Shown one piece after another: positions 13,811-26,210 of a DNA stretch of 64,000 bases (position 1 is the first letter of the stretch; every line of letters starts with the position of its first letter). Origin of the DNA: a virus. The stretch spans positions 1-64,000 of IMG/VR virus record IMGVR_UViG_3300035099_000047; one strand, 5' to 3'. A program made the position numbers and the translations under genes. The notes below the pieces were generated by a model, which ran no database searches, was not told the origin of the DNA, and saw nothing but the letters and a program-made list of their open reading frames with translations.

Positions 13811-14218
13811 CTAACTTTCATCCACACCAGACCCATCTTCCCCTCCCCACTTCCAATCATCCCCCTCTCGCAATTCCTTATTGGCCTTCCTCAAACACTC
13901 CAGGCTCTCTTCCAACAACCGAGCCTGAACCTTTTCAAATTCCGACATCTTCCTATCTGCATAATTATACACCTCAACTCCAGACAATTTATCCACCTTA
14001 AATATAACCCCTCCCATGCAATTGAATTCGATCCACTCCTTATCGTAGTTCTTATTCACGATATAATGTTCAAACAACTCAACCACTTTCTTTGCCGTCT
14101 CTTCAGGCATCTTTCTGGAGATTGTAGTTCCATTCAAATGAAGCACTACACATTTATCCATATTTGTCCTCCCACAATCCCGGTTTCCCTTCCGATTGAG
14201 CTTGTTTTTGTTTAGCAA
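13811..14218 (-). CDS. Hypothetical protein
   Basis: ORF; start probably MDKC. Confidence 0.5.
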   Translation of the reverse strand: MLNKNKLNRKGNRDCGRTNMDKCVVLHLNGTTISRKMPEETAKKVVELFEHYIVNKNYDKEWIEFNCMGGVIFKVDKLSGVEVYNYADRKMSEFEKVQARLLEESLECLRKANKELREGDDWKWGGEDGSGVDES

Positions 14219-18765: not shown

Positions 18766-20044
18766 GTGACATTCCCCACACCTAAAGGTGGAGGCTTCTG
18801 ACGGACGCTTGTCCTTGCTTGCTCCATGAGGGGGCAAGTAGCGGGGCTACGTTATCCGGCATGGGTGTGTCCCACCCAGCTCGACGCAAGATGTTCAGCG
18901 CCGCGTTGTGATCACGGTCGAGCGACAGACCACAGGCGCAGGTGACCCAACGGGTCGAAAGGTCAAAGTTTGGGAACGCTGTTCCACACTTAGAACAACA
19001 CTTGGACGTATAGGCGGGGTCTACATAGGCGACTTCACGACCAGCGCTTTCAGCCTTGTACGTGAGGTACTGCCGAAATGCAGACCAGCCGCTGTCCAGG
19101 ATGCTCTTGCTCAGGTGATGATTGCAAACCATGTTGCGTACATGCAAGTCTTCCAGTGCAATACGGTCATATCGGCGAATCAAGTCGGTGCTCAGTTTGT
19201 GCAGAAAGTCTGCACGCTGCGCCGCAACATGTGACTGATGGCGCTGAACGGCAAGCAGCACCCGGCGACGGTTGTTGCTACCGCGATGGGCGCGGGCAAG
19301 TTTGCGTTGCAGGCGGCGCAATTCCCGCTGCCCGGCACGATAGAAGGCCGGATGCGCAATCTTTGCTCCATCACTGATAGTTAGCAAGGCGGAAATGCCT
19401 ACGTCAATCCCAGCGATCTTGCCTGTGGGAGGCAGCGGTTTGCCTTCTGGCACTTCACAGGCAAAACAGGCATACCACCATCCCGCTTTGCGCAGGATGC
19501 GAACCGTCTTGACCGTTCCCTCAAGTGGGCGATGCCAGCGTACACGCATCCGCCCAATGCCATACAGCTTCAGTCGCCGCCCATCGAGTTTTGCACCATT
19601 CCCGAATTGCTTGAACAGAAAGCTGTTGAATTTGTTGTGACCTTTGAATCGTGGAAAGCCGGGCTTCTCTCCAGCTTTTACACGGCGAAAAAACGCCTGA
19701 AATGCAAGGTCAACCTGGTCAATGACGCTCTGTGCCGTTTGGCTGAACATCCGTTTGCCACAGAGGAAAGTCTTCCGGTAGTGTTTGGCAAGTTCGTAGA
19801 GTTCCGATCTGCTAACGCTGATCCTTTCCAGCTTATAAGCATACTTGCGCTCTGCCAGCGCCATGTTGTACAATCCTTGGCAGGCTTCCAGTATGCGACA
19901 CAAGTTTTTCTCTTGCGAGCGCGAAGGGTAGAGGCGATAGCGGTAAGTTCGCAGCATTTAGGCTACCTTCATCTCCAAGGCTCTGTTATAAACCTAGCAA
20001 CACCCCCTAGCCTTGACGGTATTTGCACCTGTTTCAACTCCACT
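18766..20044 (-). mobile_element. IS200/IS605-family element carrying tnpB only (IS1341-like)
   Basis: Right-end hairpin GAAGCCTCCACCTTTAGGTGTGGGGAATGTCAC ending in TCAC at 18766; no tnpA; left end inferred. Confidence 0.7.
18782..19957 (-). CDS. tnpB: RNA-guided endonuclease TnpB (IS605 group)
   Basis: HTH YRYRLYPS, RuvC-I GIDVG, RuvC-II ALEDL, Zn finger CSKCG/CACG, RuvC-III DRDHNAALNI. Confidence 0.95.
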   Translation of the reverse strand: MLRTYRYRLYPSRSQEKNLCRILEACQGLYNMALAERKYAYKLERISVSRSELYELAKHYRKTFLCGKRMFSQTAQSVIDQVDLAFQAFFRRVKAGEKPGFPRFKGHNKFNSFLFKQFGNGAKLDGRRLKLYGIGRMRVRWHRPLEGTVKTVRILRKAGWWYACFACEVPEGKPLPPTGKIAGIDVGISALLTISDGAKIAHPAFYRAGQRELRRLQRKLARAHRGSNNRRRVLLAVQRHQSHVAAQRADFLHKLSTDLIRRYDRIALEDLHVRNMVCNHHLSKSILDSGWSAFRQYLTYKAESAGREVAYVDPAYTSKCCSKCGTAFPNFDLSTRWVTCACGLSLDRDHNAALNILRRAGWDTPMPDNVAPLLAPSWSKQGQASVRSLHL

Positions 20045-21462: not shown

Positions 21463-22593
21463 TCAATGATACCTGCTTTTTCTGTGGATTTTACAAGCTT
21501 CTTCCACAGCATTCCAAGCGTCCACTACTAAAGCCTTCAAATCATCTTCCATATTTTCCTCTTCCACCATACGTACTATTTCCTCTCGGCGCATAATCCG
21601 TTCTGGCCCAAGACCTGTCACCACAATCTTGCCACCGCTCGCATTTTCACTCTGAGTTTCTTTTTCCTTTTTCCAAACCTTTTCCGCTACCAAGTAATCC
21701 ACCATCCCACCAACATCATCTACCCCTGCGCTATGATACACCGGGACCACCACAGACCGATCCCTACCCACCACGCGGTTTTTCTTGACCCGCACCTTGC
21801 AATACGTACCCAGTTCCCGTTCCTTACCATTGACTTCCCTCTTGATTTTACCCACTTGAGTGGACCACAACTGAAGCGTGGCAAAGAACTTCAAGGCTCG
21901 GCCACCAGCCACTGTACTAGACTCAAACAAACTGTAACTATCCCGCGTCTGGCTGACCACTATCAAAATGCTACCACTGCGCTTCAACGGGCCCATCAAT
22001 TTACGCAGATTACGAGAATTCCATTTGGCTATTTCTCCCCCAAAGCTACCCGTGACTTCCTTCTTACCCTTGCGCATAGCCGCCTTGACTTTATCAAACT
22101 GGTTTATCTCCTCCCGACTGGTGAGGCCGTCAAGGCTATCCAAAACGTATATGAAGGGCTTACTTTTTTTGAGTGAGTCATCCAAGTTAAAATAAAACTC
22201 TTGGATAGTCTCGCTGTCTTCACGGTTGCCTTCTTCGTCGTAACGCGGAGCTTCTAACCTTTGGGCCACTTTCGGTCCAAAGAAACGCTCAATGTCCATC
22301 AATGCACCGCCTTCAGGCGCATCATAAACAAACCTGTAATCATCAAAGCTAGGGTTAATGCTAGCTTCCGCCAAACAGGTCAACGTCAAAAATGTCTTAC
22401 CTGAGTCCGAATCACCGACGAACCAGTAAAACTTCCCTTTCACAAACCCCTTGTCTGGATGCCCTGTACATGCCAAATTCAAACAAGTGCTGCCCGTACT
22501 CAAAAACCGATCTGGACTCAGATCTTCCAACACATCCCGTTCCACTGGTTTACACAACGCCTGCTTAATACGTTCAATCTTGTTGGGACTCAT
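21463..22593 (-). CDS. recA: RecA/UvsX-like recombinase
   Basis: LSTGS, Walker A GDSDSGKT, VLDSLDGL, SQTR, GGRALKFFA, VKKNRV. Confidence 0.9.
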   Translation of the reverse strand: MSPNKIERIKQALCKPVERDVLEDLSPDRFLSTGSTCLNLACTGHPDKGFVKGKFYWFVGDSDSGKTFLTLTCLAEASINPSFDDYRFVYDAPEGGALMDIERFFGPKVAQRLEAPRYDEEGNREDSETIQEFYFNLDDSLKKSKPFIYVLDSLDGLTSREEINQFDKVKAAMRKGKKEVTGSFGGEIAKWNSRNLRKLMGPLKRSGSILIVVSQTRDSYSLFESSTVAGGRALKFFATLQLWSTQVGKIKREVNGKERELGTYCKVRVKKNRVVGRDRSVVVPVYHSAGVDDVGGMVDYLVAEKVWKKEKETQSENASGGKIVVTGLGPERIMRREEIVRMVEEENMEDDLKALVVDAWNAVEEACKIHRKSRYH

Positions 22594-22691
22594 AACTCAC
22601 CTCAACAAGGTTTCTGCCAAGTGGTCTTGGTCACAACCGATACTTTACTCGCTTATAATTGCTTATAAGTGGCATGCGAGAGGCTGGCGGT

Positions 22692-24314
22692 TTAGGCCAG
22701 CATCAGGGGAGTATCTTCCAAGGCCCGCAGAAACACTCCGCGAGCGCCGTTTATGTCCCGGTCCATCGAGACACCATCCGAACCACGCACACGATATCGG
22801 CTGCCCAAATTCAGGATGATTTCTCCCGACCATGAGCAAGTCTTGGACGTGTACGCTTCGTCCTGAATCAGAACGGTTTTCTGTTCTTGATCGGCCTTGG
22901 CAACCAATCTCAAACGGAAACGAGAATGGGCCAAGCCGAGCATGGCGCGAACGGACTTGTTGCGCAACTTGCGACTCGTTCGACTGGCCATGCGTCCCGC
23001 CGCGAATGGCGGGATGATGATGGTGTCGAATTCATCAAGCAAGAATCGAATCGTCTTCCAATGTAACTCGTCAATCAAGTTGCTGATCTTGCGCCGCATC
23101 CGTCCAATAGCTAAAGTCAAACGACGTTTCGATCGCTTGTCTCCCTTGGCGCGACGTGAAATCAGCCGATCAAGGTGAACGAGAAGACGGACGATTCGTT
23201 GTTGTGCTTGCTCTCCGATCTTGCCGTGAGAATCAAGAGAAAACAGAGTCTGAAACGTTCGGACGCCGGGGTCCAGAGCTACCGTCCGGCCTTTATCAGC
23301 CTTTTGTTGGACGGTAACTCTGAACGGAACGGACAAGAACCAAGCCCCATTGTCCCAGACGAGTCGGGAATCCCGATGCTGCTGGGGAAGCGGTTCCGCC
23401 GCCTTGAGAACTCCGGCAATTCTCAAGTAAACGCCGATGGCGTTATCTTTTTGCTTCACTGCCGATGCGGGAATGAAGCACGATTGTTTCGGGTTTCGCC
23501 TGGAGCGAAAGCGCATCTTGAACGGCTCGCCAGTCTGCTTGGCTTTCTTCTTTTGAGCCGAGAATGCTTCGCACGCATCGCTTACGGCCACGCTCTTGAT
23601 CTGATACGGGACAGCACGCATCCAGTCCGGGCACGTCGCCAAAATCATCTTCTTGACAACAGTCCAATGCGGACGCGGCCCGTCAAGGCCGTTGATATAC
23701 TCGATGGTTTGGTTGTAGCACCAGCGGCTTGCGGCCAACCAACTGCGGAACCTATTCGCTTGTTCCGGTGTCGGATAGAGTCTGATCTTCCTTGATCTTG
23801 TCGCGGTATTTTCTGAGTCCGTGCATTCGCGCAGAGAAGACGGCAAGGATGGCAAGCAAGTCTTGAGTGAGTTCGTCTGCTGGACTGCCTTTCGCAGACT
23901 TACCGAGAACCACGATTTTGCCACCGTTTCGCTCGACCACCCAACGGATGAGTTCGATTCCGAATCTGGCAAGCCGGTCGCTGTGGGCAACCACAATCGT
24001 AAGCTGTTCGCCGCGCAAGCTGCGTTCCAGTAAGGAGCGCAAACCTTTGCGTCTGAAGTTGAGTCCGCTGCCGATGTCGATGACGATTTCACTGCCTGGA
24101 TTGCGTTGTTTGAGCCATTCGACTTGCCGTTCAAGATCGTCTTTTTGTTTGTGGCTCGAAACTCTGGCGTAACAGACAATGGCTGATTTGACGCCGACCC
24201 AGGTATCAATGCCAAACAATTGCTGTCCAGTCGGAGTTCGTTTGCAAGGAATCTGTCCATGATCGGCATACTTTCTGAGTGTGTGTGGGTGCAAACCAGT
24301 GGTATCGACGGCAA
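22692..24314 (-). CDS. tnpB: TnpB, IS607 / pro-Fanzor-like (start uncertain; overlaps tnpA in another frame)
   Basis: KIRLYPT, RuvC-I ALDPGVRTF, IIIPPF at the usual RuvC-II Glu, DEAYTSKTC, RuvC-III DRDINGARG. Confidence 0.9.
   Translation of the reverse strand: MPSIPLVCTHTHSESMPIMDRFLANELRLDSNCLALIPGSASNQPLSVTPEFRATNKKTILNGKSNGSNNAIQAVKSSSTSAADSTSDAKVCAPYWNAACAANSLRLWLPTATGLPDSESNSSVGWSSETVAKSWFSVSLRKAVQQTNSLKTCLPSLPSSLRECTDSENTATRSRKIRLYPTPEQANRFRSWLAASRWCYNQTIEYINGLDGPRPHWTVVKKMILATCPDWMRAVPYQIKSVAVSDACEAFSAQKKKAKQTGEPFKMRFRSRRNPKQSCFIPASAVKQKDNAIGVYLRIAGVLKAAEPLPQQHRDSRLVWDNGAWFLSVPFRVTVQQKADKGRTVALDPGVRTFQTLFSLDSHGKIGEQAQQRIVRLLVHLDRLISRRAKGDKRSKRRLTLAIGRMRRKISNLIDELHWKTIRFLLDEFDTIIIPPFAAGRMASRTSRKLRNKSVRAMLGLAHSRFRLRLVAKADQEQKTVLIQDEAYTSKTCSWSGEIILNLGSRYRVRGSDGVSMDRDINGARGVFLRALEDTPLMLA
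23752..24294 (-). CDS. tnpA: IS607 serine recombinase TnpA
   Basis: MerR-like HTH HPHTLRKYAD, catalytic YARVSS, DIGSGLN, DRLARFG. Confidence 0.93.
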   Translation of the reverse strand: MHPHTLRKYADHGQIPCKRTPTGQQLFGIDTWVGVKSAIVCYARVSSHKQKDDLERQVEWLKQRNPGSEIVIDIGSGLNFRRKGLRSLLERSLRGEQLTIVVAHSDRLARFGIELIRWVVERNGGKIVVLGKSAKGSPADELTQDLLAILAVFSARMHGLRKYRDKIKEDQTLSDTGTSE

Positions 24315-24446
24315 CCCTTAACGGAATGTACCTCTTCCGGATTAAAATGACTTGGATTCAAGCAATCCTTACGATGTTTGATTAACAAACTCTTCAATTG
24401 CCTCAAGTTGTTAACAGACACCTCAACCCCAACCACCTTGCCTTCA

Positions 24447-24740
24447 TCATTTTGTATTGCTATTTTCACAACTGCTTTCTCCATCATTGTTAGCACTAGC
24501 CAACAATCCAGCGGCCAACAACACACAGCCCACCGGTAGACGGTCACTATCAAGTTCAGAACCCACGTACCAACACCTAACCTCCCAACACCTCTTCATG
24601 AGAGTACGGACCTGGTACAGACAGTTCAACGGATTTTCAAGGGGGCAATCCATATCACCAAAATAAAATGGAGCCAGAGCCAGGGTTTCACTGGGCCTCA
24701 TCTGTACTACAGAAGCGTGCTGCGTACACCACTCTGGCAC
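24447..24740 (-). CDS. Hypothetical protein
   Basis: ORF on coding strand. Confidence 0.35.
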   Translation of the reverse strand: MPEWCTQHASVVQMRPSETLALAPFYFGDMDCPLENPLNCLYQVRTLMKRCWEVRCWYVGSELDSDRLPVGCVLLAAGLLASANNDGESSCENSNTK

Positions 24741-25000
24741 CTTAATCGTTCAATCCGAACCTTTCCTTGACACTTCATCCATTCAATCAACCGACCCAAC
24801 TGCTGCCCAACAAACCTACTCACGATCGGAGCAGCATCCATAATACGTCCATCCTTGTCCGTAACCACCTTCACAGTCATTCTGGGGCTGCTCAACCACC
24901 AGCATTCAATCCCAGCCGTTATCAACTGGTGGTTTCTTGCTAGCAGGTTCGGTTTTTTTAGGGGCCGGTTCATCCCAGTCATCTTGCTTCTTGCTCTCAA
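24707..25000 (-). CDS. Hypothetical protein (start probably downstream of the called start)
   Basis: IMDAAPIVSRFVGQQL motif. Confidence 0.5.
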   Translation of the reverse strand: MRARSKMTGMNRPLKKPNLLARNHQLITAGIECWWLSSPRMTVKVVTDKDGRIMDAAPIVSRFVGQQLGRLIEWMKCQGKVRIERLRCQSGVRSTLL

Positions 25001-26210
25001 GTTCGCTTGATTGGTCCTTATCCACTTTTGGTGCTTGCTTTTCCTCCTTCAGCTTGCGCACCTCATCCACACCAACCGTCGTATGGATCTCACCATCTTC
25101 ATCTTCCACAGTCAGGCTTGTACCATCTCGGCTAATGCGAACGATTTCACACACACCAAACTTACGGGTCTGAACCTTTTCACCCTCTTCCAAACCAGCT
25201 TCCTGCGCCGTCACTCCCTTCCTCTTAGGGGGAGATTTTTCATCCTGTGCTTTTTCGGGCTGCCTGGGTTTTTCTGGCTCTTCAACCTTGTTGCTACCGG
25301 GCTTACCCTTCCTTCCCGGCGATTCATCCGAATCGTCGTCATTGGTCTTGAGAGCCTGTGGCTTGCAGCCCCGAGTTTCTTCCTCTCCGTTGCCCTGGTC
25401 CTCAACCTCCTGCTCGAACGCCTTTTTCAGCTCGTCATAGGGCAACACTTTGACTACGGCATCCAAGTCGATGCCATGTTCTAACAACTTAGGATCCAAT
25501 CCATTCGGCCTAGCCCGGAACTCAATTTTGTAGCACTCGATGTACTTGAAAGTACCGGCATCTTCTTCACGGTAACTAGCCTTCAACAACGCTCCAGCAT
25601 CCGGGTCGTCAAAATCCCTGATGTAGGTTTCATCATCTTCAGCATCCTGACGACAATCATCCAGCAGTCTGCCAAACGTAGCGTGGCTAGTTTCGTACAG
25701 CTGAATCTCATCATCATCCTCATCCTGACGGTGGAGGTGGATCAAAAACAACTGCCGTTCCCGGGGACGCAAAGCTCTAACCAGTTTTTCATCCCCATCC
25801 GGATCCTTGGCCATGCGAGCTCTAAACTCACAAATGGGACACTTTTTACCAGCCGTCTTGGCAGGGCAAGTATAGCTCTCTCGATTAGGCCCCACCCCAG
25901 TATGGACATAGTAAGTACGCTCATAGTACCACTCTCCCGCCCTGGCATAACGGTTGCCCTCAAGAGTTTCCATGCCTGTTTTCACCTCATAGGGCACAAT
26001 GTCAAAACGGTACGATGTGTCCTTGGGCTGAAACACACTGATACCTTCTGGAATGGAGATGGTAGTCCAATCTCCTCCACTACGGTGCCTAGCGTCTCGA
26101 ATGGAGCTACCTGCTCGACGCCGTTCTCTCCGTTCCTCACGATCTCTCCGGTCACTTGCCATTTCTGATCTTCTCCTGATAGTAACGTTTGTGAAACTGT
26201 CTACGACCAT
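24906..26210 (-). CDS. Single-stranded DNA-binding protein (gp32-like) with acidic tail and SH3/KOW-like insert
   Basis: YVH...YTCP...KCPICE Zn site; acidic C-terminal tail ending WD; adjacent to UvsY-like and RecA genes. Confidence 0.75.
   Translation of the reverse strand: MVVDSFTNVTIRRRSEMASDRRDREERRERRRAGSSIRDARHRSGGDWTTISIPEGISVFQPKDTSYRFDIVPYEVKTGMETLEGNRYARAGEWYYERTYYVHTGVGPNRESYTCPAKTAGKKCPICEFRARMAKDPDGDEKLVRALRPRERQLFLIHLHRQDEDDDEIQLYETSHATFGRLLDDCRQDAEDDETYIRDFDDPDAGALLKASYREEDAGTFKYIECYKIEFRARPNGLDPKLLEHGIDLDAVVKVLPYDELKKAFEQEVEDQGNGEEETRGCKPQALKTNDDDSDESPGRKGKPGSNKVEEPEKPRQPEKAQDEKSPPKRKGVTAQEAGLEEGEKVQTRKFGVCEIVRISRDGTSLTVEDEDGEIHTTVGVDEVRKLKEEKQAPKVDKDQSSELESKKQDDWDEPAPKKTEPASKKPPVDNGWD

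Follow-up and report, generated by a model that had tools for sequence, protein, structure and literature searches.

The stretch of DNA analysed here, called the window, comprises 64,000 nucleotides (nt), positions 1 to 64,000 of the IMG/VR virus record IMGVR_UViG_3300035099_000047. It carries an IS607-family insertion element on the minus strand at 22637..24420 (left end 24420 or 24400), which consists of the serine-recombinase gene tnpA and of tnpB. The TnpB protein has the rearranged active site of Fanzor proteins and belongs to a clade without a zinc finger, and the first ~155 codons of its open frame lie in the +1 frame of tnpA. Taken as a whole, the locus is quite probably a phage IS607 element with a Fanzor-type, zinc-finger-less TnpB, an overprinted N-terminus, and guide-directed homing.

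Active site, zinc finger and family of TnpB

The long tnpB open reading frame (ORF) occupies 22692..24269 on the minus strand and encodes 525 amino acids (aa), as delimited from the ORF list and the lengths of homologues. It begins with an ATG at 24269, has a second ATG at 24260, and ends with a stop codon at 22692-22694. Pfam domains PF07282 and PF12323 were detected. The TnpB core, comprising WED, REC and RuvC, spans 22692..23806 in a 76-sequence alignment and in an AlphaFold2 (AF2) model. Residue numbers below refer to the 525-aa ORF, and conservation refers to the 76 aligned relatives.

The catalytic aspartate of RuvC-I is D333 in the motif DPGVRTF (23271-23273). Pro420 in IIIPPF (23010-23012) takes the place of the RuvC-II glutamate, an alternative glutamate, E471, is found in DEAYTSKTC (22857-22859), and the aspartate D505 lies at 22755-22757. 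D333, P334, G335, E471, and D505 are invariant, and P420 is near-invariant. E471 lies six residues ahead of a remnant cysteine (E-x6-C), which matches the pattern of Yoon et al. 2023 (PMC10711439). In a sequence-only reading of this DNA, the replaced glutamate, the relocated glutamate and DPGVRTF had been taken as marks of a pro-Fanzor-type TnpB. All three are present, and with them the DPG and alternative-Glu signature of Yoon et al., whereas the CxxC...CxxC part of the published pattern is absent from the window TnpB and from its whole clade. In the mimivirus protein ApmFNuc, the mutants D324A and E467A, at the matching positions, are inactive (PMC10530073).

The former zinc-finger segment, CSWSG ... 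RGSDG (22770..22838), keeps only one of four cysteines, as had been read from the sequence. This first cysteine is itself V, A, L, I or T in many clade members, and SW[ST]GE and GSDG-type motifs replace the cysteine pairs throughout the clade. The term "degenerate", which the same reading applied to the finger, does not hold. By the alignment and the tree, the loss is a derived and conserved trait of a monophyletic clade, and not decay. The lost finger, along with the many TnpB exaptations reported by Altae-Tran et al. 2023 (PMC10691335), would also fit a protein exapted for a non-nuclease role, such as TldR-like RNA-guided repression. The invariant catalytic triad makes this very improbable, as do the retention of the gene alongside tnpA in IS607 elements that have conserved ends and occur as several identical copies in a genome, and a guide region that is variable flank across relatives. 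A successful whole clade without the zinc finger bears on the purpose of this module and on smaller editors.

A single-protein phmmer search found the mimivirus L79 Fanzor2 (PDB 9B0L) at E 8e-19, and ISDra2 TnpB was absent at E <= 1. The profile search gave 9B0L at 1e-35, ISFba1 TnpB at 1.7e-7, and ISDra2 TnpB at about 1e-4. By these scores, the window TnpB is much closer to Fanzor2 than to canonical TnpBs. The family comprises 1894 proteins at E <= 1e-3 among the candidates scored, with 552 loci in bacterial contigs (one genome per species) and 51 loci on IMG/VR contigs, including metagenome-assembled genomes (MAGs) of giant viruses. It occurs in Chloroflexota, cyanobacteria, Pseudomonadota, Chromatiaceae, Bacteroidota, viral contigs, and others. 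The closest homologues (P0005-P0009) are 69-77% identical.

The maximum-likelihood tree (quick search, 74 rows, one canonical outgroup on a long branch) contains a single zinc-finger-less clade of 57 rows, with a support of 97 in the Shimodaira-Hasegawa-like approximate likelihood ratio test (SH-aLRT). It also contains a clade of giant and large viruses (support 90) and three zinc-finger-bearing groups from viral contigs, and all of these groups meet at a polytomy. The nearest tree relatives of the window TnpB are viral contigs, namely L031, followed by L043 and L037. The tree and the searches thus agree with the earlier placement on the Fanzor2 side. They do not uphold the further suggestion that phages with such elements were vectors in the TnpB-to-Fanzor transition. 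Fanzor2 keeps the zinc finger that this clade has lost, and on that ground the clade is a side branch and not the ancestor of zinc-finger-bearing Fanzors, which puts the window element off the path. Better candidates for it would be those relatives on other viral contigs that bear the zinc finger.

The cyanobacterial pro-Fanzor IS607 TnpBs (PMC10711439) resemble the window element in DPG and alternative Glu, IS607 tnpA, and GG crossover sites. That set comes from cyanobacteria, whereas the present copy is phage-borne and its clade spans several phyla, with Chloroflexota, Pseudomonadota, Bacteroidota, and viral contigs. The zinc-finger-less clade was left out of the set because the published pattern accepts only sequences with both CxxC pairs. 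Among prokaryotes and their viruses, the Fanzor-type active site therefore extends far beyond the cyanobacteria-only set. Altae-Tran et al. 2023 describe RuvC-II-rearranged clades, some of them virus-specific, and some large branches that have lost the zinc finger.

ISFba1 and other canonical IS607 TnpBs with RAGATH-18-derived guide RNAs (PDB 8IAZ; PMC11061315) share the core fold, the IS607 context, and a G-rich target-adjacent motif (TAM; AGGAG or GAGGG). Unlike the window TnpB, these proteins carry the RuvC-II Glu in its canonical place, together with D-phi-G and an intact zinc finger. ISDra2 TnpB (PDB 8EXA, 8H1J) has the same WED/REC/RuvC core fold, but it belongs to IS200/605 and differs in its Y1 transposase, AT-rich TAM, canonical Glu, and zinc finger.

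Relatives with 34-36% identity are carried by isolated phages: Vibrio phage 355E48.1 (MW824376), about 20 related Vibrio crassostreae phages, and Microcoleus phage My-WqHQDG. Their match begins at residue 79 of the long ORF. MW824376 has no annotated tnpA, and its tnpB-like gene is split into two coding sequences.

The N-terminal extension in the +1 frame of tnpA

The N-terminal extension of TnpB is encoded at 23807..24269 on the minus strand, and the overlap with tnpA covers 23752-24269. The sequence-only reading had taken the short tnpB, although the tnpB frame is open through tnpA. The closest homologues are called at 520-536 aa, contain no resolvase domain, and share their start column in the alignment. 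The ~150 additional residues can be aligned with the 540-aa ORF of the window that crosses tnpA, and in most loci the tblastn match spans residues about 6-538 within a single frame. In the zinc-finger-less clade tnpB is always in the +1 frame of tnpA, and giant-virus loci have the same arrangement.

This frame is kept open. Of 109 loci, 94 have no more than one +1 stop within tnpA. The mean number of stops across tnpA is 0.89 in the +1 frame, whereas the +2 frame has 9.8 and synonymous shuffles have 3.9. Where a single +1 stop is present, it lies at a conserved spot near tnpA codon 20 and is followed by an ATG. A null based on the codon usage of non-overlapping tnpB predicts 8.9 stops, and 0.33 are observed. 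Stop avoidance has P <= 0.01 in 60 of the 64 non-redundant loci (<85% identity). The share of NTR among NTN codons is 0.235 in tnpA versus 0.442 in tnpB, with NTA and NTG about half as frequent in tnpA. Seven canonical IS607 plasmid elements with D-phi-G and an intact zinc finger served as controls. In these, each alternative frame contains 3-39 stops, and the frame of tnpB stays open for just 2-47 codons upstream.

The extension has the conserved motifs PYW, LWLP, and SWF. Individual tnpA codons bear signs of selection on the second frame. TnpA residue 87 (A, S or T) is encoded by xCC in 51/64 loci, which yields Pro in the extension. At residue 88, xTA codons, which are avoided elsewhere, occur in 42/64 and yield Tyr, and Leu89 is xTG in 56/64, yielding Trp. 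Val128 is GTG in 42/44 and Val129 is GTT in 51/63, which supply the Trp and Phe of SWF.

The AF2 model was built from the 76-sequence alignment without templates, with a mean predicted local distance difference test score (pLDDT) of 78.6 and a predicted template modelling score of 0.73. Residues 1-77 are disordered. Two islands follow at 78-97 and 111-127, comprising a helix at 83-91 (pLDDT about 88) and strands at 111-115 and 122-127 that form a beta-hairpin, and then a loose linker. From residue 155 the TnpB core has a pLDDT above 90. In VIA-align, the model matches ApmFz2 (9b0l_P) with Z 27.4 and a root-mean-square deviation of 4.1 over 413 residues (model 77-520, chain 53-516). ISDra2 TnpB (Z 27.8 over 325 residues) and ISFba1 TnpB (Z 24.7) are alignable only from model residue ~155, over 325-346 residues. 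Chain residue 53 is the start of the ApmFz2 N-terminal domain (PMC11832414), and a structured N-terminal domain before WED is the Fanzor2 architecture (Schargel et al. 2024). In the solved structure this domain contacts guide RNA and target DNA, and it has been described as unique to Fanzor2. By prediction, the helix and hairpin of the extension would correspond to it. A profile alignment of the extension to the ApmFz2 domain reached chain residue 98 with low quality; it was not decisive, and the structural alignment was used instead.

ApmFz2, also called ApmFNuc (Acanthamoeba polyphaga mimivirus L79; PDB 9B0L; PMC11832414, PMC10530073), is the best solved-structure match to the window TnpB by sequence. 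Both have DPG, Pro or Gly at the old Glu position, the relocated Glu, an IS607 context, and a G-rich TAM, which is predicted in the window. The ApmFz2 N-terminal domain (RuvC-R and thumb) falls within the aligned range. In contrast to the window TnpB, ApmFz2 has the CxxC...CxxC zinc finger, and its residues 1-53 form a basic nuclear localisation signal, whereas the N-terminus of the window TnpB is Ser/Thr-rich and not basic. About 200 nt of non-coding guide-RNA region follow the ApmFz2 ORF, compared with 55 nt after the stop in the window. The two proteins are about 21% identical when aligned by structure.

Stop avoidance, forced synonymous codons, negative controls, and the AF2 model indicate that the overprinted N-terminal domain is real, and the long TnpB form is presumably translated. 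Several points weigh against this reading. The structural match to 9b0l is known by its first and last aligned residues alone, and parts of the extension have a pLDDT below 50. The loci are related, which means that the P values of single loci depend on one another. In some relatives the +1 frame contains 2-5 stops, and just ~100 upstream codons remain. The ATG at 24269 is not preceded by a clear Shine-Dalgarno sequence. Synonymous-codon identity in the overlap is only slightly raised (0.40 vs 0.365), and overall synonymous-site conservation was dropped as a test of dual coding because of this weak effect. The slight rise suggests that constraint is focused on stops and a few anchor residues, with most of the extension loosely constrained.

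An alternative is that only a short TnpB is made, from a TTG at 23855 or 23846, and that the open +1 frame is an untranslated by-product of tnpA composition or of another constraint, for example RNA structure. Two in-frame TTG codons do lie 23-26 codons before KIRLYP, and many database entries are called at 375-395 aa. The mild rise in synonymous identity and the disorder of the first 77 residues also agree with it. This alternative is unlikely, as the stop avoidance goes far past both nulls and is missing in the canonical IS607 controls, and the conserved Pro, Tyr, and Trp of the extension demand particular synonymous codons or persist even where the TnpA residue changes. In addition, the structured islands superpose on the experimentally seen N-terminal domain of ApmFz2, whose ORF spans the region (PMC11832414), and the solo relatives in Vibrio phages still match from residue 79.

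Under the reading with a translated extension, a wider proposal is slightly favoured. The Fanzor2 N-terminal domain would have been born by overprinting in a prokaryotic IS607 tnpA, not in eukaryotic viruses, and would be functional within the nuclease of bacteria and phages. The tnpA and tnpB starts would lie ~65 nt apart on one mRNA, and the choice of start site would set the ratio of transposase to nuclease. In the phage copy, loss of the tnpA ATG would leave the nuclease alone to be made, and the element would be a pure homing element. The overprinted extension would then provide a concrete origin for the Fanzor2 N-terminal domain, and an unusually clear case of a functional domain born inside another gene and kept from bacteria to giant viruses. 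Yoon et al. 2023 (PMC10711439) mention neither an N-terminal extension nor a gene overlap, and the literature searched (full text) described neither a tnpB frame that stays open through tnpA nor an N-terminal extension of prokaryotic relatives. Annotated tnpB genes of the zinc-finger-less clade often miss the correct length by 150 codons in either direction, and in some cases tnpA is left out of the annotation.

The ENA metagenome protein P0065 (562 aa) is an in-frame fusion of tnpA and tnpB through a frame switch in the 3' part of tnpA, and represents a natural frameshift or an assembly error.

Element ends, tnpA and the predicted guide RNA

Both junction strings given by the sequence-only reading are present on the minus strand when the sequence is read directly, TTGAGG ending at 24421 and TATCGG ending at 22637. 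The ends of the family were defined from the multi-copy genomes of Anabaenopsis elenkinii, a Caldilineaceae MAG, and Dehalococcoidia MAGs. In these, similarity breaks exactly after ..GTATCGG on the right and after the flanking GG on the left, and the left flank always ends in GG, as the earlier GG logic had supposed. The exact GTATCGG motif occurs at the right end of 36/69 non-redundant loci, with close variants in others. The window right end, ..AAAGTATCGG at 22637, is identical up to GG to that of L162, the closest metagenomic relative (70% protein identity). The right end at 22637 is confirmed by sequence, because it matches the multi-copy consensus and L162. In many clade members the tnpB stop TAG sits within the terminal motif, 14 nt from the element end. 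Transposase-binding repeats, the 3' tail of the guide RNA, and coding sequence thereby share bases.

The left end is not fixed to the base, because two TTGAGG sites lie 20 nt apart, one in the left flank at 24421..24426 (the predicted TAM side) and one farther inward at 24401-24406. The region 24378..24415 holds two copies of the family end motif, GTTAACAAC at 24407-24415 and GTTAATCAA at 24378-24386, and similar motifs occur at the ends of relatives; TnpA may bind them. The distance from left end to tnpA start is 63-68 nt in relatives and either 84 or 64 nt here, which favours 24400, and so does a phage 9-mer that spans the outer left junction and recurs six times in the window. The end motif at 24407-24415 and the architecture of L162 favour 24420, which is somewhat preferred on the sequence.

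The tnpA gene (23752..24336, minus strand) encodes a serine recombinase (PF00239, E 1.8e-18) with an N-terminal MerR-type helix-turn-helix (HTH; E 3.3e-4), as delimited by Pfam and by alignment with L162 and L031. This order, an HTH followed by the resolvase catalytic domain, is that of IS607 TnpA (Chen et al. 2018, PMC6188088). The window gene differs in its AAG start and in being read almost entirely in the +1 frame as tnpB. By codon-by-codon alignment, the homologous start codon is AAG (24334-24336), whereas L162 and L031 have ATG. Sixty relatives begin M-x-Y-V-P-L-R-K-A-V, and the window sequence reads K-R-Y-I-P-L-R-V-A-V. The frame is open from 24357 and the remainder of it is intact. The first canonical in-frame start, TTG at 24294, would drop the first HTH helix. 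With the conserved ATG changed to AAG, the element would lack the translatable transposase of an autonomous one.

The window element is therefore probably poorly mobile or immobile. This is probable and not certain, because a five-copy Caldilineaceae family carries ACG at the same codon, and a non-AUG start may be tolerated. The ACG hints at non-AUG or leaderless initiation in this IS607 family. The left ends of L118, L122, L124, L128, L141, and L162 contain a near-consensus promoter (TTGACA, 17-18 nt, TATAAT-like) a few bases before the tnpA start, which suggests that their tnpA mRNA is leaderless or nearly so.

The start-codon change also raises the possibility of a decaying relic, with a dead tnpA, a non-functional TnpB, and the element as a passive passenger. 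Insertions that distinguish the left-end region from L162 and L031, the single copy, and the failure to find a closely related phage (nearest UvsX 40-62% identical) agree with it. Both reading frames are intact across 1.6 kb, however, and every residue that is invariant in the 76 relatives is present, the catalytic D, E, and D among them. The right end equals that of L162 up to GG, and the ACG start of the Caldilineaceae family again speaks for tolerance of a non-AUG start. Decay is accordingly improbable, and a Fanzor-type homing element is the preferred explanation.

The predicted scaffold of the guide RNA (right-end element RNA, reRNA, or omegaRNA) would span about 22637..22860 on the minus strand, with a fold z-score of -2.7 and a conserved 3' tail up to GTATCGG. 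Only 55 nt separate the tnpB stop from the element end, and the scaffold must therefore lie mostly within the coding region. A conserved hairpin at 22723..22745 (minus strand), in the 3' coding region of tnpB, forms part of the predicted scaffold. RNAalifold on the last 160 nt of 36 aligned elements gives 10 base pairs, with 95.9% of cells paired. Double changes number 43, versus 15 +/- 3 in shuffles and 0-17 in slid controls, and the covariation sits at codon third (wobble) positions. Together with the conserved 3' tail, this covarying hairpin speaks for a structured RNA. No Rfam family was found at E <= 1 in 22300-24700. A RAGATH-18-type guide RNA was ruled out by this lack of a match.

In the proposed mechanism, TnpA would excise and insert the element through crossover at GG dinucleotides, as in the family. 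A guide RNA would begin in the 3' part of tnpB, cross the right end and reach into the flank, and would direct cleavage of element-free phage genomes at a GG-ending TAM followed by the sequence from 22636 downward. The element would then be regained when the break is repaired by recombination with an occupied copy. A GG-ending TAM and a guide from 22636 are expected by analogy, because homing has been described for IS605 TnpB (bioRxiv 10.1101/2023.11.20.567912) and the TAMs of ISXfa1 and ApmFz2 (both GGG; PMC10711439, PMC11832414) and of ISFba1 are G-rich. The predicted 20-nt guide and target in the right flank is 22617..22636 (minus strand), set by position only, and the 16-mer after the right end is unique in the 172-kb record.

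Two observations count against this explanation. The right end is itself GG-ending, which would expose the element to self-cleavage if the TAM were GG alone. No empty allele was found when viral and metagenome contigs were scanned for exact matches to the empty junction and to the right flank. Excision in silico gives a short ORF that ends in the uvsX ribosome-binding site, and the sequence-only reading had put forward a restored small ORF. This ORF proves nothing, because the alternative junction also yields one and because no relative was found below E 0.1 (tblastx, 29 related phage loci).

Phage setting and further TnpB genes

The source virus record is linear, 172,227 bases long, and 78% complete (CheckV). 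All genes in the window are on the minus strand. The element is wedged between a gp32-like single-stranded DNA-binding protein (SSB) gene (24906-26210) and a UvsX-like recombinase gene (21463-22593), 43 nt upstream of the latter. The surroundings represent a replication and recombination module with UvsX, 5'-3' exonuclease, gp32-like SSB, DNA polymerase pieces, clamp loader, sliding clamp, primase, and helicases.

The element is marked off by the family consensus at its right end, its anomalous composition, and its single copy in the 172-kb record. Its 1.78 kb have a GC content of 0.54 and a GC skew of 0.00, compared with a skew of about -0.16 to -0.33 in the flanks. The gene content is that of IS607, with tnpA and tnpB on the same strand, tnpA upstream, and a slight overlap between the two. 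An end-to-end search for inverted and direct repeats found no terminal inverted repeats and no target duplication between the element ends, and neither is expected for IS607 (PMC6188088). With the virus record, the tnpA domains, and the GG-ending sites, these features bear out the original description as a phage-borne IS607.

The phage has two further canonical TnpB-like genes. A solo canonical TnpB at 18782-19957 (minus strand) contains GIDVG, IALEDL, intact Cys pairs, and the domains PF01385, PF07282, and PF12323, with no adjoining transposase. Its local GC of 0.54 and GC skew near 0 mark another insertion. It served as the in-genome contrast and as the outgroup of the tree. The third TnpB-like ORF lies outside the window in the same phage (G000:C1:152261-153346), as a 396-aa open frame with 26% identity to the query core.

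The 9-mer GTTGAGGTG and its one-mismatch variants occur on the minus strand of the window, for example at 13970, 22598, 24419, 36936, and 41856. They are enriched on the coding strand (45 vs 24 +/- 5 expected), and the 9-mer is probably the ribosome-binding-site context of the phage.

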